Source: an uncultured Clostridia bacterium
GTDB lineage: Bacteria; Bacillota; Clostridia; Christensenellales; UBA1242
Assembly (NCBI GenBank): GCA_947628205.1
Contig: CANQYX010000002.1
Span: 4,975-68,974 of the forward strand
Direction: 5' to 3'
DNA: 64,000 nt
Below the pieces are notes generated by a model. The model did no database searches and was not told the origin of the DNA. It saw only the letters and a list, made by a program, of their open reading frames with translations. The position numbers were made by a program, and so were the translations under genes. Each line of letters starts with the position of its first letter. Position 1 is the stretch's first letter. Below are positions 7,807 to 63,599 of this stretch, one piece after another.

Positions 7807-9090
7807 TTAAACCTCGTGTTGGTTCTCTAAACGAAATTTTACCTCTTTTATAAGCTCAACTGCATTTATTAGCCGCGTGCCATATTTATTTGGCTTGCTG
7901 GCAGTTTTTTGCGCTATTTTTGCAAATTCATTCATTGTTAAGTTGGCGTCAACTTGTTTTGCTAAGCAAAACAGCCCTAAAACTTGCGGAATACTCCAAC
8001 TTGCACAACCAAAATTATTTTCATATTTATATCCGTCCGTTGTGTATGGCATTGGTGTTAATTTATCTGCATCAATAACAGCAACGGCATTTGGTTTTGG
8101 CACATTAGAAACATAATTGTCTAAATCTTCATTAGGTTTTTGACAGTCCTTTTTATACGCATAAGTGAAATTATTCCAAAATTCATTAGCACTAAAAATA
8201 GCAGTCCCATAGTTTTCAAGTTCTTTTACAAGTTTGTTATATTGTTTTAAAAGTTCGTCTTTCTTTTTCGTGTTTCCATTTGTATATAAATCAATATGAT
8301 AAGTGATTGATGCTGATAAACCAACAGCCACTATTTTTTCGCCTGCTTTTACGCGTTTTAAAATGTCTTTAAGAGCTGCAAATTCATTTTTGAGTTCCGA
8401 ACCAATATAATCAGCAAATTGTCCACCTTCTGTTCCGTCAGTTGCATAATAAACGCAATCTACATCGGGTGCAATTCCAATGTTTTTGCCCATTAGGCGC
8501 GAAAGGACTGAATACCCATGAAAATCTAAATTAGGGTTTTGCTGAATGTTGACAAAGTCAATTTTTCTATCTTTAAATTCCTTGTGAGACAAATCCAATT
8601 TTTTGTCTATATATGCAACCTTAACGCCCTTGCCCGTTATTCCCTGTTTATGCAATTGTTCCACGCCTAAACCTTTATATGTTTTGGCCTTAGCAACAAG
8701 TTTTTCGGGGTCGAAACCTTTTGGCAATTTAAATTTTGGTGGCCATTTTGTTGCAGTGCTAAACGGAATGCGCATCAGTTTTTCTGCTGGAATTTTAGAT
8801 AAATCCATTTTAGAAAAATCTTCCAAACTAAAACCCCAAATAAAATCGCCGGTATAAATTAAATCAATCAACTTATCCCTTTCAGCTTGAAGTTCAACAA
8901 TTTTTTTGCTGTTCTCGTCAGTTTTAGGTTGGCTAAACAAAACTTGAAGTTGTTGTTCAATTTCAATCTTTTCTTGAATTGTTTTTTCTAAGTTAAAATT
9001 TTCGCTTAATAAATTAGAAACCAAATCCTTATTCGCTCTATAACTTAAAATAATATTCTTAAACTCTTCAAAATTTTTGATTGTTTCCAC
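7807..9090 (-). CDS. Subtilase (S8)-like serine peptidase with a coiled-coil N-terminal region and no signal peptide
   Basis: 427 aa. Asp motif GKGVKVAYIDKKLDLSHKEF, His motif FHGYSVLSRLMG...GIAPDVD and Ser motif GCASWSIPQVLGL (compare GTSMAAPHVAG). The N-terminal ~75 aa are E/K/Q-rich. Confidence 0.5.
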   Translation of the reverse strand: METIKNFEEFKNIILSYRANKDLVSNLLSENFNLEKTIQEKIEIEQQLQVLFSQPKTDENSKKIVELQAERDKLIDLIYTGDFIWGFSLEDFSKMDLSKIPAEKLMRIPFSTATKWPPKFKLPKGFDPEKLVAKAKTYKGLGVEQLHKQGITGKGVKVAYIDKKLDLSHKEFKDRKIDFVNIQQNPNLDFHGYSVLSRLMGKNIGIAPDVDCVYYATDGTEGGQFADYIGSELKNEFAALKDILKRVKAGEKIVAVGLSASITYHIDLYTNGNTKKKDELLKQYNKLVKELENYGTAIFSANEFWNNFTYAYKKDCQKPNEDLDNYVSNVPKPNAVAVIDADKLTPMPYTTDGYKYENNFGCASWSIPQVLGLFCLAKQVDANLTMNEFAKIAQKTASKPNKYGTRLINAVELIKEVKFRLENQHEV

Positions 9091-9522: not shown

Positions 9523-9697
9523 GAGATTCTTCACTTCGTTCAGAATGACACCTACCATATTTTTTAACACAAATTGACTAAATGTATATTCAATTTTTAA
9601 AACGACTGAAATAGACCACAGTCATGTTGAGCGTAGTCGAAACATCTCATTTTCTCAAAAAGATTCTTCTCTACGTTCAGAATGACACGAACATCTC
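9523..9697. repeat. Cluster of GAGAT...ATGACA hairpin repeats (yraN-rnhB spacer)
   Basis: 9523-9550 gagattcttcacttcgttcagaatgaca; 9621-9648 gtcatgttgagcgtagtcgaaacatctc (inverted copy); 9661-9687 agattcttctctacgttcagaatgaca; a partial cgaacatctc at 9688-9697. Confidence 0.85.
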
Positions 9698-10316
9698 ATT
9701 TTGCTTGCTTGTCGGCTAGGTTTTTGAGGAATGATAGACGGTGAATTGGTGTTATGCCGAACTTATTTATGGCCTCATAATGCTTTTTTGTGCCGTAACC
9801 AACGTTATTTTCAAAATCATAGTTTGGATAGGTTTTGGCGTATTCTGCCATCAATTTGTCACGATAAACTTTTGCAACAATTGATGCGCAAGCAATGGCG
9901 TAACTTGTGGCATCGCCGTGAATTATTGATTTTTCATTTTCTGCAACATGCAATTTAACAGCGTCAATTAAAAGCAAATCTGGCTTTACAACAAGTTTTT
10001 GATAACTTTCTTTCATTGCCTCGATTGTAGCTTGCAGGATATTAATTTGGTCTATGCACTGATTGTCGCGTTCGGTGATGGAAACTGCCAATGCCTTATT
10101 TAAAATTTGTTTATTTAGTTCCTCTCGCTTTTTTGCGGAAAGTTTTTTGCTATCAAAAACACCATCTATCATTTCGTCATAAGGCATAACCACGCAAGCG
10201 GTTACAACCGGACCAGCAAGCGGGCCGCGCCCAACTTCATCAATGCCGGCAATTGTTTTGATGTTCTTGTTTAATAGATGCTTGTCATATTCAAAAATTT
10301 CTTTTGTGTTTATCAT
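9696..10316 (-). CDS. rnhB: Ribonuclease HII
   Basis: GIDEVGRGPLAGPVV catalytic motif. Start moved to the ATG at 10316 (AAGGA SD); the track ORF extends to 10355. Confidence 0.9.
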   Translation of the reverse strand: MINTKEIFEYDKHLLNKNIKTIAGIDEVGRGPLAGPVVTACVVMPYDEMIDGVFDSKKLSAKKREELNKQILNKALAVSITERDNQCIDQINILQATIEAMKESYQKLVVKPDLLLIDAVKLHVAENEKSIIHGDATSYAIACASIVAKVYRDKLMAEYAKTYPNYDFENNVGYGTKKHYEAINKFGITPIHRLSFLKNLADKQAK

Positions 10317-10357
10317 ATTGTCCTTTTTTATTTTTTTGTTAAGATATCCATGCAATT

Positions 10358-10531
10358 GAGATACACTCCACTCGCTTTATACCCCACCGCGAAGCAAGTT
10401 CTTATGGGGACCCCGAATTTACCCCACTGCGAAGCAAGTTCTTGTGGGGACCCCGAACGCTCGGTTGGTATGACATGACACATTTATTTTATTGCGAGGC
10501 AACTTGACCATCAAGTTGGCGTGGCAATCTC
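10358..10531. repeat. Composite repeat: a GAGATAC-type element carrying two tandem CCCCAC...GTGGGG hairpin modules, followed by an inverted GAGATTGCC-type element
   Basis: gagatacactccactcgct, then two ~40-nt modules (about 10377-10417 and 10418-10457), then cgctcggttggtatgaca (to 10475). 10491-10531 attgcgaggcaacttgaccatcaagttggcgtggcaatctc is the reverse complement of the core of the 12738 copy. Confidence 0.85.
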
Positions 10532-10534
10532 AAA

Positions 10535-11368
10535 TTATTCTAAACAAATTTTGCCGAGTTTACCAGTTCTAAAATCGGTTAGCAAAATTTTTGCCGCGCG
10601 CTCCAAATCAATTTCTCCGCCTTTAACAACGCATCCGCGCTTTTTGCCAATTTGATTTAGTATGTCTATATTTTGAGTATTTTCATTATATACTACACTG
10701 TATTTTGTATTCAAAATGTTTTTATCAATTAAATTTAAGCGATTAATTAGTTCGGTTGCAACCTCTACTAAATTTAGAACTTCGTCTTTAACCGAACCAA
10801 TGATGGCAAGGTTATATGCCTTTTGTTCATCATCAAAATTTGGCAAGAGCACGCCCGGAGTGTCCATAAACTCAATGTTTTCGCTGACCTTAATCCACTG
10901 CTTAGATTTGGTTACGCCGGCGCGGTTACCGGTTACTGCGCGCGCCTTTTTACAAAGATTGTTGACAATTGTGGACTTGCCCGAATTTGGAACGCCAAGT
11001 ACCATTGCGCGCGTTATGAAATTTGCACCTTTAAGTTTGTTTTGCGCTAGCCTAGATTTAAAGATTTTGTTTATTGCATCGATTATAACTTTTGAATTTC
11101 CGCTAACTGTGGCATTAAGGCTAACGCACTGCTGCCCTTGCGAGGTGAAATAATTTTTAAATTTGTCTATGGCAGGTTTGTCAACCAAATCTGCCTTGTT
11201 TAGAACATAAATAATTGGCTTATCTTTAACCACCTTTAAAAATTCTGGGTTAATGCAACTTGTTGGGCAACGTGCATCCAAAACATAAACGAAACAATCG
11301 CAAAGTTTGCTATCGCTTTGCATTTGCTTTAATGTTTTGTTCATGTGCCCCGGAAACCAATTTATCAT
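10535..11368 (-). CDS. rbgA: Ribosome biogenesis GTPase A (RbgA/YlqF)
   Basis: MINWFPGHMNK start, circularly permuted GTPase motifs (LNKADL...GVPNSGKST...DTPG). Confidence 0.9.
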   Translation of the reverse strand: MINWFPGHMNKTLKQMQSDSKLCDCFVYVLDARCPTSCINPEFLKVVKDKPIIYVLNKADLVDKPAIDKFKNYFTSQGQQCVSLNATVSGNSKVIIDAINKIFKSRLAQNKLKGANFITRAMVLGVPNSGKSTIVNNLCKKARAVTGNRAGVTKSKQWIKVSENIEFMDTPGVLLPNFDDEQKAYNLAIIGSVKDEVLNLVEVATELINRLNLIDKNILNTKYSVVYNENTQNIDILNQIGKKRGCVVKGGEIDLERAAKILLTDFRTGKLGKICLE

Positions 11369-12737: not shown

Positions 12738-12930
12738 GAGATTGCCACGCCAACTTGATGGTCAAGTTGCCTCGCAATGACATTGAGATACACTCCACGC
12801 GTTCGCAATGCTCACTTGGTCGGTATGACATACACAATTGTCATGTTGAGCAAAGCGAAACATCTAGATTCTTCGCTTTTACCCCACTGCGCACAAGTGC
12901 TGGTGGGGACCCCGAACGCTCAGAATGACA
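12738..12930. repeat. Array of four GAGAT...ATGACA repeats (rimM-KH spacer), one with a nested hairpin module
   Basis: 12738-12782 GAGATTGCC type; 12785-12830 GAGATAC type; 12840-12865 inverted ATGTT type; 12866-12930 GAGATTCTT type interrupted by tttaccccactgcgcacaagtgctggtggggaccccgaa. Confidence 0.88.
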
Positions 12931-12945
12931 CGGAAGCGCGAAAAT

Positions 12946-13179
12946 TTATTTTTCTTCAAATTTGATAACTAATCGGTCGTGGCTATTGCCGACAGATTTT
13001 ACAACTGTGCGGATGGCGTTGGCGATTGCGCCGCCCTTGCCAATGACATTGCCTAAATCCTTTTTAGCAACTTTAACTTTAAAAACCTTTGTTTTGCCCT
13101 CGTTAGCTTGAATTTCAACCTGCTCGGGCGCGGAAACAAGATTTTTAACAATGTATTCTAACATTTCTTGCATAGACAA
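12946..13179 (-). CDS. KH domain RNA-binding protein (YlqC family)
   Basis: 77 aa. KVKVAKKDLGNVIGKGGAIANAIRTV contains the KH GxxG motif. It sits between rpsP and rimM as in Bacillus. Confidence 0.85.
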   Translation of the reverse strand: MSMQEMLEYIVKNLVSAPEQVEIQANEGKTKVFKVKVAKKDLGNVIGKGGAIANAIRTVVKSVGNSHDRLVIKFEEK

Positions 13180-25347: not shown

Positions 25348-25464
25348 TGTCATCCTGAGTAAGCGGAGCGCATCGAAGGATCTTGATAACACTCAATGAG
25401 ATTCTTCGCTATTACCCCACTGCGAAATTAATTCTTGTGGGGACCCCGTACGCTCAGAATGATA
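25348..25464. repeat. Two GAGAT...ATGACA-family repeats (pcrA-rpsU spacer), one with a nested hairpin module
   Basis: 25348-25383 tgtcatcctgagtaagcggagcgcatcgaaggatct (inverted ATCCT type). 25398-25464 gagattcttcgct[attaccccactgcgaaattaattcttgtggggaccccgta]cgctcagaatgata. Confidence 0.85.
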
Positions 25465-26818: not shown

Positions 26819-26939
26819 AGATACACTCCACGCGTTCGCGATGCTCACTTGGTCGGTATGACATGTCAGCAAGAGCCAGCATGGCAATCTCTACCTTTAA
26901 AAATGTCATTCTGAGCGAGCAAAGCGAGCTGAAGAACTC
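26819..26939. repeat. Three GAGAT...ATGACA-family repeats (HIT-mtaB spacer)
   Basis: 26819-26863 agatacactccacgcgttcgcgatgctcacttggtcggtatgaca; 26864-26891 tgtcagcaagagccagcatggcaatctc (inverted, degenerate); 26904-26939 tgtcattctgagcgagcaaagcgagctgaagaactc (inverted; overlaps the mtaB stop). Confidence 0.8.
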
Positions 26940-29611: not shown

Positions 29612-29639
29612 GAGATTCTTCGCTCCGCTCAGAATGACA
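29612..29639 (+). repeat. Minimal ('empty') GAGATTCTT-type repeat
   Basis: gagattcttcgctccgctcagaatgaca. This is the same element as at 12866 and 25398, but without the nested hairpin module between the two CGCT motifs. Confidence 0.85.
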
Positions 29640-30690: not shown

Positions 30691-30704
30691 TGTATGTTTT
30701 TAAT

Positions 30705-30748
30705 AGATTGCCACGCGATTTTTATGGTAAAAATCTCTCGCAATGACA
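30705..30748 (+). repeat. GAGATTGCC-type repeat with a variable stem and TGG loop
   Basis: agattgccacgc-gattttta-tgg-taaaaatc-tctcgcaatgaca. Confidence 0.85.
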
Positions 30749-37312: not shown

Positions 37313-38454
37313 TTAAAAATTTTTTGTTAAATCGTATAATTTTTGCGAAAAATTGTAATTTTTGATGTAATTTTGCAACTTTTCAAAAATTTTTGTGTTA
37401 AACTTTGATATTGTCTGTTTTGCACGTATCATAATATTTTTTGGCGAGTGGGCAAAATCTACAAACTCAATCATATCCACCGAATAGCCAAACGCACGCA
37501 AAATTTGGGCGCGGAATTCATCCGTTAAAAGTGCGCAAAATCTTTCTTTGATGATGCCGTCTTTCAGCATAATGTCTAACTCGCCGCCCTTGTTGATTGA
37601 CAAATTAATTTCGTGCTGGCAACATGGAACGGAAAAGATATATTTCGCTTTGTTTTGAATGGCAAAATTTAGCGCGTAATCGGTGGCCGTGTCGCACGCA
37701 TGTAGTGTGATAACCATATCAATTTTGCCAGAAAACAATTTGTCCTTTTTAACATCGCTCAAAACAAATTCTAGCCCAGTGTAGTTATATTTTTTGCCAA
37801 TTTGTTGCAAGTTTCAACCACGTCTTTTTTAATGTCGTAGCCAATAATGTGTGCCTTAATTTTTTTAATATTTACAAAATAGTGATAAATTAAAAATGTT
37901 AAATAACTTTTGCCGCAGCCAAAATCTAAAATCGTGATTTCTTTTAAATTAGAGTTTTTAAATTCGTCATCTATAATTTCAATAAACCTATTAATTTGTT
38001 TAAATTTATCGTACATGGCGGCGACAATTTTATTTTCTTTTGTGAAAATGCCAAGTTCTTGCATAATGGGAACATTGTCACCCTCGTTTAGCAGATAATT
38101 TTTTGTTTTGTTGTGCGCGGTTGAAATTTTTGCTTGCGTTATGGTGTTAGCTTGCTCTTTCTTTTTAAAGCCACCTTTTGAAAATGAAAATGAAATAGTT
38201 TTACCCTCTGCCTCAACCAAAATTTGCTTAAAATTTTTAAAATCTACACTTTCAACCGCATTTTCATAAGCCAAATTAGCATGAAAAACTTGTGTGCCTT
38301 TATAACTTTCAACTTGATATACGCGCTGCCCTTTAATTTCTACTGGGCGCAACATAATTTTTGAAAAATCTCCGTTTAGCCTATCACTAAACACAATTTT
38401 TTTAATAGGCAAATTTAAATTTAGCAAATAATCTTTAACTTCATCAATTTTCAT
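37313..38454 (-). pseudogene. Class I SAM-dependent methyltransferase split by a frameshift at an A6 run
   Basis: ORFs 37771-38454 (ends ...ILDFGCGKSYLTF...ETCNKLAKNITTLG*) and 37313-37810 (QQIGKKYNYTGLEF...LHACDTATDYAL...VPCCQHE) overlap. Adding one A to the run at 37790-37795 (T6 on the plus strand) gives a continuous ...CNKLAKKYNYTGLEF... ORF. Confidence 0.75.
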
Positions 38455-52467: not shown

Positions 52468-52512
52468 GAGATTGCCACGGCAAAATCATGGTGATTTTGC
52501 CTCGCAATGACA
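52468..52512 (+). repeat. GAGATTGCC-type repeat in the dnaK-dnaJ spacer
   Basis: gagattgccacg-gcaaaatca-tgg-tgattttgc-ctcgcaatgaca. Confidence 0.88.
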
Positions 52513-56120: not shown

Positions 56121-56153
56121 TAACCCACGAGAACTTGCTTCGAGTGGGTAAGC
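56121..56153 (-). repeat. Inverted copy of the CCCCAC...GTGGGG hairpin module inside the hrcA leader
   Basis: The plus strand reads taacccacgagaacttgcttcgagtgggtaagcg. Its reverse complement cgcttacccactcgaagcaagttctcgtgggtta matches the modules at 10418 and 12877. Confidence 0.7.
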
Positions 56154-56222
56154 GCAGCAACCGCTTAAGGACTTACAATTTTTTGTGTCCACAAAAAATT
56201 TAGTTTAAAAGCGTGTTGCGAG

Positions 56223-56249
56223 CTAGCACTCTTATTATATGATTGCTAA
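56223..56249. promoter_or_regulatory. CIRCE operator (HrcA binding site)
   Basis: CTAGCACTC-ttattatat-GATTGCTAA against the consensus TTAGCACTC-N9-GAGTGCTAA (16/18), directly downstream of the hrcA promoter. Confidence 0.85.
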
Positions 56250-60111: not shown

Positions 60112-60786
60112 ATGAAAATTGAACCAGAACACCAATCCACATTTCCTCTTCCGCTAACAGCGGAAAAAGAAAAATATTATCTTGAAAAAATGCAACAAGG
60201 CAACAAACAAGCAAAAGAAAAACTCATTTTGCACAACATGCGTTTAGTTGTACACATTGCAAAAAAATATTTTGTAAAAAATGAAAATGAAGATTTAATT
60301 TCCATTGGATATTTTGGTCTTGTTAAAGGTTTAGAAAGTTTTCAATTGGATAAAGATATAAAACTTTCAACCTATCTTGGCAGGTGCATTGACAATGAAA
60401 TCAAAATGTATTTAAGAAAGGTTAAAACTCGCCAAAACTACGTAAGCATTGAATCGTCAACATATAAATTTAAAAATGGCAACGAACTGACATTAAACGA
60501 TATATTAAAGGACGAAAACAGCGAAACTCTACTTAACTTAATTAATGAGATTTTGGATAAAGATCAGCTAGAAAATCTTTTGCGCTGTTTAAGCGAACTT
60601 GAAGTTAAAATTATAACCATGCGCTACGGGCTATGCGATGGCATTGAGCACACGCAAAACGAAATTGCGCAATTGTTGGGCGTTAGCAGAAGTTACATTT
60701 CCCACCTTGAAAAAATCGCCATAAACAAGATGAAAGACGAACTAAAATTTAACGAAAAATTTAGAGAAAACAATAATAATTTTTAA
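60112..60786 (+). CDS. Sporulation-type sigma-70 family factor, SigE-like, lacking a pro-sequence
   Basis: 224 aa. ...FPLPLTAEKEKYYLEKMQQGNKQAKEKLILHNMRLVVHIAKKY...KLSTYLGRCIDNEIKMYLRK...SRSYISHLEK aligns with mature SigE/SigK. Confidence 0.75.
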   Translation: MKIEPEHQSTFPLPLTAEKEKYYLEKMQQGNKQAKEKLILHNMRLVVHIAKKYFVKNENEDLISIGYFGLVKGLESFQLDKDIKLSTYLGRCIDNEIKMYLRKVKTRQNYVSIESSTYKFKNGNELTLNDILKDENSETLLNLINEILDKDQLENLLRCLSELEVKIITMRYGLCDGIEHTQNEIAQLLGVSRSYISHLEKIAINKMKDELKFNEKFRENNNNF

Positions 60787-60836
60787 GTACAAGCAAAATT
60801 CGACCTTTTTCGCCATACAAATAAAAGAGGTGAAAA

Positions 60837-61532
60837 ATGGTTTTTGAAAGTTTAGGTCAATTTTTATCAAAACTTATGCTGTTTCATGGCTATGTTAACG
60901 AATATAATGGCTACCCCAAAGCACTAACAAAGGAAGAGGAAGAAAAATTGGTGGAACTTATGGCTGAGGGAGATAAATCCGCCCGTGAAAAGCTTATAAA
61001 CCACAATATGCGCCTTGTGGCACATGTTGCAAAAAAATATAACGGCGCGGCTGAGGCAGACGAGTTAATTTCGGTTGGCTCTATTGGGCTAATTAAGGCA
61101 ATTGATAGTTTTCGCGCAGAAAAGGGTTCGCAACTTTCAACTTATGCAAGCAGATGCATTGAAAATGAAATGTTGATGCTTTTGCGTGCCAACAAAAAAC
61201 ATAAAGTTTGCGAAAGCATTGAAAAGGCAATTGGCGTGGATAAAGAAGGCACCGAATTAACACTTAGAGATATAATTCCGCAAGAGGAAGAGGATGACCC
61301 CGACCACATTGTTGAAATTCGTGTTTTAATGGAAGAAGTTAAGGCGGAAATGAAAAAATTGCTAAGCGCACGCGAATATCAAATTATATCCCTCCGCTTT
61401 GGCGTTGAGGATGGCATAGAACGCACCCAACAAGAAGTGTCCGAAATGATGAACATAAGCCGAAGTTATGTTTCTCGCATTGAAAATAAGGCATTTGAGA
61501 TTATCCAACAACAATTTAAAATAAAAAATTAG
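60837..61532 (+). CDS. Sporulation-type sigma-70 family factor, pro-SigK-like
   Basis: 231 aa. MVFESLGQFLSKLMLFHGYVNEYNGYPKALTKEEEEKLVELMAEGDKSAREKLINHNMRLVAHVAKKY parallels B. subtilis pro-SigK (...[38 protein letters not shown]...). AGAGGTGA SD. Confidence 0.78.
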   Translation: MVFESLGQFLSKLMLFHGYVNEYNGYPKALTKEEEEKLVELMAEGDKSAREKLINHNMRLVAHVAKKYNGAAEADELISVGSIGLIKAIDSFRAEKGSQLSTYASRCIENEMLMLLRANKKHKVCESIEKAIGVDKEGTELTLRDIIPQEEEDDPDHIVEIRVLMEEVKAEMKKLLSAREYQIISLRFGVEDGIERTQQEVSEMMNISRSYVSRIENKAFEIIQQQFKIKN

Positions 61533-63420: not shown

Positions 63421-63599
63421 GAGATTGCCACATCACTTCGTTCCTCGCAATGACATTTTTAGTGAGATTCTTCGACTTCACTTCGTTCCGCTCAGAATGA
63501 CAAGTGAGTGGTTGAGATTGCACAGCGGTTTGATGGTCTAACTGCTTCGCGATGACTTAAGAGATTCTTCGACTTCACTTCGTTCCGCACAGAATGACA
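63421..63599 (+). repeat. Array of four GAGAT...ATGACA repeats
   Basis: 63421-63455 gagattgccacatcacttcgttcctcgcaatgaca; 63464-63502 gagattcttcgacttcacttcgttccgctcagaatgaca; 63514-63557 gagattgcacagcggtttgatggtctaactgcttcgcgatgact; 63561-63599 gagattcttcgacttcacttcgttccgcacagaatgaca. Confidence 0.88.

Follow-up and report, generated by a model that had tools for sequence, protein, structure and literature searches.

Small hairpin repeats fill many of the spacers of bacterial genomes, and the spread of most of them is unexplained. The locus studied here raises a pointed form of this question: how does one hairpin repeat come to lie exactly at the tip of another? We analysed 64,000 nucleotides of DNA (hereafter the window) from an uncultured gut Clostridia-like bacterium, in whose intergenic spacers a 40-base hairpin repeat (the module) stands at the tip of another one, 27 bases long and very widespread (the host). 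They are two stacked small repeats of differing kind, both without coding capacity. The nested repeat is real, recently gained and modular, and of a kind already known from other bacteria; the sequence comparisons made here demonstrate no function for either module or host.

Anatomy of the module

We found four full copies of the module at three sites in the 64 kb, one site being a 40-nt tandem pair, together with one degenerate copy, every one of them intergenic. Copies a (10377-10417, 41 nt) and b (10418-10457, 40 nt) stand head-to-tail on the minus strand. Tandem Repeats Finder returned a period of 40, 2.0 copies and 94% matches over 10380-10457, in agreement with the tandem pair reported in the preliminary description of this DNA, whose stated sequences are all present in the window. 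Copies c (12878-12916, 39 nt) and d (25411-25450, 40 nt; inner loop ATTAA, tail ACCCCGTA) are also on the minus strand. The conserved halves TACCCCACNGCG and GTGGGGACCCCGAA each matched four times in the window, against 0.35 and 0.06 matches expected, and for the first of them none of 100 shuffles reached four. Two independent assemblies (L017 and L018) are identical across the module region, so the region is not an assembly artefact.

In the direction of the host's tag strand, the module runs (Y)CGGGGT, CCCCAC, a variable inner hairpin, GTGGGG and TA(A/T); it is a separate, independent REP-like hairpin, GGGGT followed by CCCCAC…GTGGGG. In the alignment 88% of cells are paired, compared with 45-51% when the partner columns are slid, and two pairs are altered on both sides; at L002:3013-3060 CCCCGT/ACGGGG substitutes for CCCCAC/GTGGGG. 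These compensatory changes support the stem. The inner stem varies likewise, being GCAC/GTGC in copy c but GAA/TTC in the other three, as had been noted before, although the 3' strand of the internal loop, earlier given as ttg, is actually TT or TG, the G being part of GTGGGG. A C.A mismatch in the outer stem of copy a on the plus strand corresponds to a T.G wobble on the minus strand, and a G.U versus C.A strand test over the module stem gave mixed signals. Predicted single-strand DNA folding energies lay near those of shuffled sequence (z-scores from +0.3 to -1.1).

The degenerate copy lies at 56123-56149 on the plus strand, opposite in orientation to the others, and reads ACCCAC-GA-GAA-CTTGC-TTC-GA-GTGGGT. 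The preliminary description took it for an inverted copy in the hrcA leader. The hairpin is there and has a 12-nt core, GAAGCAAGTTCT, in common with copies a and b, but it is a degenerate relative whose stem is one C shorter than that of the module, whose ACCCCGAA tail is missing and which a covariance model of the module (R1) did not detect. It forms part of a different composite of about 110 nt that is also found in locus L026.

The host hairpin and its copies

On its tag strand the host consists of TGTC, AT plus three variable base pairs, a tandem G.A, GC, a GNA triloop, GC, G.A, the returning stem and CTC. The stem thus counts nine layers, two of them non-canonical (five Watson-Crick pairs, the tandem G.A and two G-C pairs), and opens with AT…AT in 25 of 26 hosts. 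It covaries across seven to eight stem types, whereas TGTC, GA…GA and ATCTC are constant. The TGTC tag is present in 15 of the 18 full copies in the window and in 116 of the 118 found in IMG/VR loci, the basic loop is 3 nt (GNA), and the 3-nt tail reads CTC. The G.A/A.G pairs and the C-GNA-G tip form on the tag strand only; the opposite strand would give pyrimidine mismatches. This confinement to one strand would be an indirect sign of a repeat that is bound and cut as single-stranded DNA.

The window holds 19 host-type hairpins, three of them filled and 15-16 module-free; the hairpins that bear the full modules have the form GAGAT…ATGAC. The earlier list of hosts named real sites, but few of these 19. 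Two tandem modules occupy the tip of the ATACC-type host at 10358-10474, which on the minus strand reads TGTC-ATACCAACC-GAGCG-(two modules)-AGCGAG-TGGAGTGTAT-CTC. One module each is carried by two ATTCT-type hosts, also on the minus strand, at 12865-12929 and at 25398-25463, the latter with its tag degraded to TATC. The module-free host already pointed out near 29612 is present at 29612-29638 on the minus strand (ATTCT type; GAGATTCTTCGCTCCGCTCAGAATGAC) and parses as TGTC-ATTCT-GA-GC-GGA-GC-GA-AGAAT-CTC. Further empty hosts lie at 9523-9549 and 9660-9686 (ATTCT type, minus strand, 27 nt each), at 9621-9648 (ATGTT type, plus strand, 28 nt) and at 12840-12866 (ATGTT type, plus strand, 27 nt).

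Many host copies have longer tips, which take the form of pentamer runs, CCA-loop hairpins or extended stems. A CCA-loop inner hairpin marks the ATTGC-type hosts on the minus strand at 12738-12781 (stem CAACTTGA), 30704-30747 (stem GATTTTTA) and 52468-52511 (stem CAAAATCA), and also the 5'-truncated ATTGC-type host at 10494-10533 on the plus strand, which is the inverted partner of 12738-12781 (96% complementary). An ATACC-type host without a module (12784-12828, minus strand, tip GAGCATTGCGAACGC) and the filled host at 10358 are paralogues. On the plus strand, a 36-nt ATCCT-type host at 25349-25384 has an extended pentamer tip and a 35-nt ATTCT-type host at 26905-26939 has a degraded 3' arm. 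Hosts also cluster: four fall within 192 nt at 12738-12929, and another four (63421-63454, 63464-63501, 63514-63556 and 63561-63598, with pentamer runs or a CCA-loop hairpin as tips) make up a minus-strand cluster at 63421-63598 that adjoins the RNase P RNA gene.

Host hairpins extend well beyond this genome. An identical 27-mer host occurs in 45 IMG/VR contigs, and the retrieved stretches range from 37 to 63% G+C. None of the 118 hosts in 394 kb of IMG/VR loci is filled. Together with the 16 of 19 unfilled hosts in the window, this rules out that every host carries the module, and the earlier view of a separable module nested in a host repeat, with filled (3/19) and empty copies side by side, holds.

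Position and orientation of the module within the host

In every nested case the tag strand has GAGCG before the module and AG(C/T)CGA after it, and the module is flanked by host arms as originally described. Empty hosts have a single base at this position, as in GAGCG-G-AGCGA at 29612 and GAGCG-T-AGTCGA at 9621. The module takes the place of the middle base of the C-GNA-G tip of the host. It was found in four clear host stem types (ATACC, ATTCT, ATGTT and ACCCT), and locus L011 holds a fifth, degenerate module-bearing host. At each of the seven nested sites, about five to six of which are independent, one strand carries both the TGTC tag of the host and the GGGGT foot of the module. Module units occur only singly or head-to-tail, with periods of 40 nt in the window, 38 nt in L026 and 42 nt in L001; the tandem modules of L026 are not within an intact host.

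Gain and copy-number change among close relatives

In relatives whose YlqF is 81-93% identical, the corresponding spacers are 5-6 nt long or free of repeats. The ylqF-rnhB spacer measures 217 nt in the window compared with 6 nt in L025 (93% YlqF identity) and 5 nt in L019-L021 (88%), and the KH-rimM spacer measures 225 nt compared with 18 nt in L021. Neither host nor module occurs in some 20 kb of sequence from L021 and L022 that is syntenic with the window. Because close relatives have such short or repeat-free spacers there, host and module are both recent gains.

The number of modules is polymorphic as well. At the site orthologous to 10358-10474, L024 (93% YlqF identity) has one module and the window two; L025, L019 and L021 have none. 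The single module of L024 is a hybrid that joins the 5' end of copy a to the core of copy b. Among these loci we found no strictly isogenic filled and empty pair for one host copy, L025 being without the whole cluster and not merely the module. The locus is a compact case of a hairpin repeat placed precisely on another's tip. Close relatives offer the filled, empty and absent states, and insertion and recombination can therefore be tested against each other on existing metagenomes.

The module outside the window

The module also exists without a TGTC-type host, in the 16S rRNA leader of an Onthoplasma MAG (L003). Further copies, with the inner stem recast in G+C, were found in Acidobacteriota and Chloroflexota MAG contigs and in unclassified G+C-rich metagenome contigs; the module ends in these other phyla are fixed by the search pattern, and their conservation is not readable from the matches. 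Two contigs of one MAG (L005 and L007) have module copies with an identical core and differing flanking bases, and L002, L026 and one Acidobacteriota MAG have two to three copies each. A REP-like hairpin GGGGT-CCCCAC…GTGGGG is thus common to Acidobacteriota, Chloroflexota and Firmicutes, which points to one common enzyme recognising it.

Other searches gave little. A blastn search of the module against plasmid and phage collections and a search of IMG/VR with two module patterns returned no match, and a sequence-string search of the literature returned unrelated primers only. Rfam yielded no module match at E up to 10 over 10300-10560, nothing overlapping a module at E up to 1 in 11 other loci, and no family for module or host at gathering thresholds and permissive E-values. 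A concatenated six-frame module peptide matched a single entry in protein databases, P0121, which led us to L026 and L027, while an exhaustive protein search with P0121 found only the unrelated repetitive proteins P0122 and P0123. We also considered and dropped several identities for the module: a terminator, as a T-run is absent, and a tRNA-like minihelix (12-bp helix plus ACCC tail), an integron attC site, a CRISPR repeat, a type III toxin-antitoxin repeat and a small ribozyme, for none of which we saw a supporting feature.

The repeats also give rise to spurious reading frames, among them a 66-codon ORF at 10278-10478 of the window and the called protein P0121. Recognising them is of use in annotation, since they create such ORFs and break assemblies.

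How the module may have reached the host tip

We propose that the module would enter the unpaired tip of an already folded host hairpin, displacing the middle base of the GNA triloop, and that it would do so in one fixed orientation through a single-strand-DNA process. The enzyme would act in trans from elsewhere in the genome, and a HUH/Y1 (RAYT-type) or Ssn-type protein would fit; a later change between one and two modules would follow from slippage or unequal recombination. We give this proposal as a whole an even chance of being right. It draws on the constant position and shared orientation of the module in its hosts, the covarying stems and independent occurrence of both units, their recent gain, the change in module number, and the published cases of NTS, acidobacterial REPs and REPs in palindromes that are compared below. 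Within it, we infer the folding of single-stranded DNA, the identity of the enzyme and the entry by insertion instead of inter-repeat recombination.

A candidate enzyme did not turn up close to the repeats. Pfam found no HUH/Y1 or GIY-YIG gene among the scanned ORFs of the window and no mobilising enzyme among about 40 ORFs drawn from the window and from L001-L013, L002 and L026. A HUH…Y motif scan of the window and L001-L027 and a GIY-YIG scan of all loci likewise gave nothing; both regular expressions are crude, which makes these nulls weak negative evidence. The scans cover the window and the retrieved loci, and a single-copy gene could sit elsewhere in the genome. Further points that weigh against the proposal are the foot of the module, which is not the canonical 5' GT[AG]G of REPs, its head-to-tail pairs, the lack of any host match to the SRM string, the ordinary folding energies, the tandem modules of L026 outside an intact host and the missing isogenic pair.

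Since host tips are plastic, recombination or templated tip remodelling could place a module without a dedicated insertion. One alternative is a BOX-like composite, in which arms and module are one element that arose once or a few times, spreads whole without site-specific insertion and diversifies by inter-repeat recombination or gene conversion and tip slippage, the module never moving alone within this genome. Several observations suit it. Between relatives at 93% identity it is the whole cluster, not the module alone, that is present or absent; module number varies as boxB number does; the hybrid copy of L024 is the product expected of a crossover between tandem copies; the pentamer arrays and CCA-loop hairpins attest to the general plasticity of tips; and boxB of S. 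suis likewise occurs between different outer module pairs (PMC3049150). However, the four clear stem types that bear the module are each common in empty form, and the divergence between the modules of the two ATTCT hosts exceeds that of copies a and b from the degenerate copy at 56123. The lone modules in other phyla and in L003 also speak against a composite that travels whole, and the exact replacement of the triloop middle base in each host type is not explained by recombination alone. On balance we consider the composite somewhat unlikely.

A bolder form of oriented entry would make the module the recognition hairpin of a widespread enzyme acting on single-stranded DNA, a "parasite of a parasite" that integrates one way into the GNA triloop of Ssn-type (NTS-like) hairpins when these are folded as single-stranded DNA. 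We regard this as quite improbable. If true, it would add a new target-site rule for bacterial mobile DNA, namely the loop of another selfish hairpin, and the module could alter Ssn cleavage at occupied hairpins.

A role in transcripts, with nested hairpins kept in operons for mRNA stability, processing or protein binding and the module as a conserved RNA motif, seems to us very unlikely. The copies are all intergenic and mostly within co-directional operons, their stems covary, and the tag strand is the sense strand of co-directional neighbours at each of the three sites in the window, as it is at L002:3013-3060, in the 16S leader of L003 and in L026; such effects have been shown for some REP, BIME and BOX elements. 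Sense orientation, however, is confounded with the replication strand, the orientation is the opposite one at 56123 and between the tRNA genes of L011, and even at E = 10 Rfam had no match. The G.A pairs with the GNA tip are a DNA minihairpin design, and the corresponding operon junctions of close relatives lack the elements, which shows that these are dispensable.

Finally, the first interpretation of the locus, a MITE-like module that generates a CGCT target-site duplication on insertion, is barely credible: CGCT does flank the module on either side in L024 and at all three sites of the window, but empty hosts already carry both in CGCTcCGCT (which can be read as the self-complementary GC/GC at the top of the stem and just as well as two CGCTC pentamers in tandem), so that they are not a duplication, and CGCT is absent between tandem copies. 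Nor is CGCT an obligatory boundary, as had been supposed, for the left flank at L002:3013-3060 is CGACT and the pair is lacking in L026, L003 and most G+C-rich copies; no duplication is seen at L026, L003 or that left flank.

Comparison with known repeat systems

In design the host resembles the CGTC-tagged REP superfamily (PMC3733652) and the NTS/dRS3 repeats of Neisseria (PMC11893778). CGTC-tagged REPs have a tag that is CGTC and often TGTC or CCTC, an 8-9 bp stem whose first pairs are A-T and T-A, a loop of 4-5 nt and an unpaired 3-nt tail with consensus CCA (Di Nocera 2013, PMC3733652). The host has TGTC, an AT…AT opening and nine layers; its loop is 3 nt, with many longer tips, and its 3-nt tail is CTC. 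NTS, in turn, is CGTCATTCCCGCGMAVGCGGGAATCYRG, and is bound and cut by SsnA, a GIY-YIG nuclease that acts on single-stranded DNA only and on one strand only, and that needs 3 nt before the palindrome and a C after it (Chenal et al. 2025, PMC11893778). Set side by side, the host reads (T)GTCATTC…GAATC(T) and NTS CGTCATTCCCGCG…GCGGGAATCY. Both have an invariant GTC ahead of the palindrome and a C behind it, the positions on which binding and cleavage by SsnA depend most, both stems begin A-T, T-A, and both repeats are strand-asymmetric and clustered in intergenic mosaics. The host has a tandem G.A where NTS has C-G pairs, and its tail is CTC, not CCA. The degenerate SRM string given there, HGTCWYN(0-2)YYVSBRHN(0-5)WNVSBRGN(0-2)RNCYNB, has no match in the window, L002 or L026, because the tandem G.A breaks its S positions. 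Ssn systems have a cd10448 GIY-YIG gene (ssnA) in the genome, often with the motif on its flanks; neither Pfam on the scanned ORFs of L002, L026 and the window nor a motif scan across every retrieved locus showed an ssnA homologue. The excerpts of the NTS/Ssn (PMC11893778) and CGTC-REP (PMC3733652) accounts describe no insertion in the hairpin's own loop. The NTS/CGTC-REP design is thereby extended to uncultured gut Clostridia, which raises the question of Ssn-type nucleases acting on single-stranded DNA there.

The module recalls RAYT-linked REPs of Acidobacteria, of the form GGTG, CCCCAT…GGGTGGGG (Quentin et al. 2018, PMC6006769 Table S1), with examples such as GGTG, CCCCATTC…GGGTGGGG and GGGTGC, CCCAC…GTGGG (PMC6006769). 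In both these REPs and the module, an unpaired G-rich foot at the 5' side leads into a stem with CCCCA(Y) at its opening and (R)TGGGG at its close, and both occur in Acidobacteriota. The exact module is absent from that Table S1. REP/REPIN-RAYT systems have a cognate Y1 (RAYT) gene with the repeat on its flanks, but no RAYT gene was found beside any module copy. As in REPs generally, the module is an imperfect palindrome within 20-65 nt (about 40 nt), intergenic and in several copies per genome. The foot differs: GGGT or GGGGT on the host-tag strand and (C/T)TA on the other, compared with GT[AG]G or GGTG in RAYT-REPs. Whereas REPs mostly pair head-to-head or tail-to-tail, the module pairs head-to-tail and forms no such inverted doublets.

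For the nested arrangement as a whole, of which the preliminary description knew no earlier account, the record already holds precedents. Escherichia coli BIMEs and Neisseria NIMEs are, like the repeats of the window, intergenic mosaics of short repeat types, often in alternating orientation, but their units lie side by side, whereas here one unit is within the loop of another. Nearest to it come the BOX elements of streptococci (A–Bn–C) and those REPs that have a palindrome as their insertion target. REPs within small palindromes include, in Di Nocera et al. (2013, PMC3733652), GTAG-23 of T. roseum in CCGSSCC(n3,4)GGSSCGG, with hundreds of empty targets, CGTC-1 dimers of H. neapolitanus and GTAG-15 of A. 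variabilis. These too place a REP-type hairpin at the centre of another palindrome, and T. roseum offers the same picture of filled and empty sites. There, however, the inserted unit is tagged and its target untagged, and head-to-head dimers occur; here the outer unit is a CGTC/TGTC-type REP, the inner one has a GGGGT foot, and the units are single or paired head-to-tail.

In BOX elements of Streptococcus pneumoniae and S. suis (boxA-boxBn-boxC), boxB, in zero to n tandem copies, is enclosed by outer modules that pair (Croucher et al. 2011, PMC3049150). Here as there, mutually pairing outer modules enclose an inner one that folds independently and is absent, single or tandem (zero, one or two modules per host), and the same inner module occurs within different outer pairs, in our case four clear host stem types. 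Both elements are intergenic, non-autonomous and of Firmicutes, with insertions that differ between related genomes. BOX modules measure 45-60 nt each, compared with 13-nt arms and a 40-nt module here, and we set the nested repeat beside BOX by architecture, not by sequence. Unlike the nested repeat, BOX is classed among the MITEs, its terminal inverted repeats resembling those of ISSpn2; unlike BOX, the nested repeat has as its outer unit a complete 27-nt hairpin that is far more widespread on its own.

A hairpin module at the tip of another hairpin

The window holds four full copies (~40 nt) of an inner hairpin repeat, the module, with the plus-strand consensus TTTACCCCAC-TGC-(3-4 bp stem, 2-5 nt loop)-TT-GTGGGG-ACCCCGAA. 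Copies a (10377-10417) and b (10418-10457) form a 40-nt tandem (2.0 copies, 94% by TRF); copies c and d lie at 12878-12916 and 25411-25450, and all four read as the consensus on the plus strand. The sequences quoted in the preliminary description were all found in the window, and the conserved halves each matched four times, against 0.35 and 0.06 matches expected by chance. The tandem site is identical in two independent assemblies, which rules out an assembly artefact. Read on the minus strand, the module is (Y)CGGGGT / CCCCAC / inner hairpin / GTGGGG / TA(A/T).

Every full copy sits within a TGTC-tagged outer hairpin repeat, the host ('GAGAT…ATGAC'). Nineteen hosts occur in the window, all intergenic, and 16 of them lack the module, so that filled and empty hosts do stand side by side, as had been proposed. 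The host reads TGTC / ATNNN / GA / GC / GNA / GC / GA / N'N'N'AT / CTC on the minus strand. Its five-base stem has seven to eight complementary versions (including ATTCT/AGAAT, ATGTT/AACAT, ATCCT/AGGAT, ATTGC/GCAAT, ATTTT/AAAAT and ATAC/GTAT), across which TGTC, both GA dinucleotides and ATCTC are invariant. The GA dinucleotides can pair as tandem G.A on the minus strand, with C-GNA-G as the tip, which is the motif of the highly stable DNA minihairpin d(GCGAAGC); the opposite strand has pyrimidine mismatches at these positions. The 'CGCT…CGCT' pattern is the GC/GC top of the host stem.

Nested cases were found at the three window sites, in the ylqF-region relative L024, at two sites in the Clostridia MAG L002 and in a degenerate host of metagenome contig L011, spanning four clear host stem types. 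Each time the module points the same way with respect to the host tag. It is bordered by GAGCG and AG(C/T)CGA, between which an empty host has a single base, so the triloop's middle base is what the module replaces. CGCT had been considered a possible target-site duplication, which does not hold because both copies pre-exist in the empty host. Nor is it an obligatory module boundary: CGACT is the flank at L002:3013-3060, and a CGCT pair is missing around the module in L026, in L003 and in most G+C-rich copies.

Host tips are generally variable. ATTGC-type hosts often carry a perfect 8-bp hairpin with a CCA loop, in four different stems. Such cassettes, with the CCA loop on the tag strand, are carried by the hosts at 10494-10533, 12738-12781, 30704-30747, 52468-52511 and 63514-63556, with stems wholly different (CAACTTGA, GATTTTTA, CAAAATCA) yet each perfectly complementary; the ATTGC-type host at 63421-63454 has none. 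Other hosts bear two to four GARCG-type pentamers, seen in tandem (GAGCG, GAACG, AAGTG) at 63464-63501, 63561-63598, 25349-25384 and 26905-26939 and in IMG/VR loci L043 and L058. In some IMG/VR copies both stem arms are extended by repeated GACCCT…AGGGGA units, which suggests stepwise hairpin growth. The ATTGC-type host at L038:4383-4467 (IMG/VR contig, 56% G+C) contains an inner hairpin, GAGCG-TTCGCCTG-CCCCGG-CGATTGCT-CCGGGG-GTAAG, of module-like layout but undetected by R1, our covariance model of the module; it may be a distant relative.

Distribution of the two repeats

The exact host 27-mer TGTCATTCTGAGCG-N-AGCGAAGAATCTC is present in 45 IMG/VR contigs, classed as viral or proviral and from many samples. 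G+C in the stretches retrieved ranges over 37-63%, and this A+T-rich sequence thus stays unaltered even in G+C-rich DNA. Among the 118 hosts of these loci, TGTC is kept in 116 and ATCTC in 97, and none contains the module.

A pattern scan for the module retrieved five Acidobacteriota loci from four MAGs, a Limnocylindrales (Chloroflexota) MAG with a 42-nt tandem pair, L002 (nested in an ATGTT-type host), the Onthoplasma MAG L003 (~70 nt upstream of a 16S gene, without a TGTC-type host) and eight metagenome contigs, seven of 58-68% G+C and L011 of 46%. The search pattern set the module ends in these matches and left the 3' partner bases and the variable pair free, and these unconstrained positions do pair. 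Overall, 88% of cells are paired, against 45-51% in slid controls, and two pairs vary on both sides. The inner stem is GGCGC…GCGCC in G+C-rich genomes, and an additional L002 copy has a CCCCGT/ACGGGG stem. Rfam gave no match to the module. In Acidobacteriota-type contigs, complementary arms GGCGAGCC…GGCTCGCC flank the module (L004:989-1032, L010:753-803), and in L005 a free-standing GCGGGGACCCCGC palindrome directly follows it; these arrangements hint that nesting and mosaicism may extend to G+C-rich genomes.

The inverted copy described near hrcA (56123-56149) is no more than a degenerate relative: it shares the 12-nt core, its stem is shorter and the tail is missing. It forms part of another composite, of ~110 nt (56121-56215), seen again at L026:1046-1145 and thus common to genomes of 38% and 31% G+C. 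The composite runs from the degenerate hairpin through GCAGCANCCGCYTAAGGRCTTACAAT and an A/T hairpin, TTTTTTGTG-NN-CACAAAAAA, to TTTAGYTTAAARGCGTG. The window copy is placed between the hrcA start and a CIRCE-like half-site (CTAGCACTC, about 56225-56233), that of L026 immediately upstream of a tRNA gene. Spurious ORFs of 62-119 codons arise from the repeats (10278-10478 and 12777-12965, both plus strand; L026:724-1083), one of which is annotated as a protein in public data (P0121).

Genomic context and close relatives

The window (~38% G+C, nearly all genes on the minus strand) encodes rpsP-KH-rimM-trmD-ylqF-rnhB-yraN, hrcA-grpE-dnaK with the CIRCE-like half-site, four tRNAs and a class-A RNase P RNA; its YlqF homologues come from 'Clostridiales bacterium' gut MAGs. 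Two overlapping minus-strand ORFs at 37313-38454, each matching one half of the Methyltransf_32 domain, look like a methyltransferase gene that is split or carries a frameshift. Two adjacent sigma-70-family genes (60112-61532, plus strand, opposite to most genes) both match region 2, region 4 and HTH_3. A 427-aa ORF without a Pfam match lies between yraN and rplS (7807-9090, minus strand); the relatives at 88% YlqF identity have a cupin gene in its place and a different 377-aa ORF between rnhB and yraN, and this operon stretch is variable.

The ylqF-rnhB spacer is 217 nt in the window and in L017 and L018 (YlqF identity 100%), with an ATTGC host and an ATACC host carrying two modules. At 93% identity, L024 has both hosts with one module and L025 a spacer of 6 nt; the spacer is 5 nt in L019, L020 and L021 (88%) and 145 nt, AT-rich and repeat-free, in L022 and L023 (81%). 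Likewise, the window has four hosts in a KH-rimM spacer of 225 nt, which in L021 measures 18 nt. Regex and covariance-model searches found neither host nor module in ~20 kb of syntenic sequence of L021 and L022. The single L024 module joins the 5' end of a to the core of b, as a crossover between tandem copies would give.

Possible origin of the nested arrangement

We consider it about an even bet that these are two selfish hairpin repeats folding as single-stranded DNA, the module entering host tips in one orientation with the help of an enzyme acting in trans. Both would fold on one strand, here the gene-sense strand and presumably the lagging-strand template; the module would enter the unpaired tip through an HUH/Y1 or Ssn type enzyme, and tandem copies could then be gained or lost by slippage. 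Against insertion we count the unremarkable predicted folding energies, the head-to-tail module pairing, atypical for REPs, the failure to find an enzyme gene (Pfam on window, L002 and L026 ORFs; motif scans of loci) and the lack of a strictly isogenic filled/empty pair among the compared loci. The main rival, a BOX-like composite diversifying through recombination with no dedicated insertion, seems to us rather unlikely. A function at the RNA level is quite improbable; the L011 and 56123 copies, which are reversed, count against it, as do close relatives that manage without these elements.

Comparison with known systems

The host hairpin resembles the Neisseria NTS, CGTCATTCCCGCGMAVGCGGGAATCYRG. 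This is the target of the GIY-YIG nuclease SsnA, whose binding and cleavage are restricted to ssDNA and depend critically on the three bases preceding the palindrome and on the C following it (PMC11893778). Hosts in the window, L002 and L026 gave no match to the published search string for the Ssn-related motif, and no ssnA-like gene was seen (window, L002 and L026 ORFs by Pfam; motif scan of loci). The module is similar in layout to RAYT-linked Acidobacteria REPs (GGTG/CCCCAT…GGGTGGGG; PMC6006769 Table S1) but has no GT[AG]G foot and is not listed in that table. In the REP, NTS and BOX literature compared, we found no description of these two sequence families in this lineage, of a repeat seated in an NTS-like hairpin's triloop, or of the inner hairpin's cross-phylum range. 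The repeat-within-repeat arrangement, taken at first to be undescribed, is already known: REPs lie within palindromic targets, of which T. roseum has hundreds empty (PMC3733652), and BOX elements have boxA and boxC pairing around 0 to n boxB units, with different outer pairs enclosing the same boxB in S. suis (PMC3049150). In its tag (CGTC or TGTC in the superfamily) and its stem opening (A-T/T-A), the host design itself matches the CGTC-tagged REP superfamily (PMC3733652); its tail likewise has 3 nt but reads CTC, against the superfamily consensus CCA, and its basic loop has 3 nt against 4-5.
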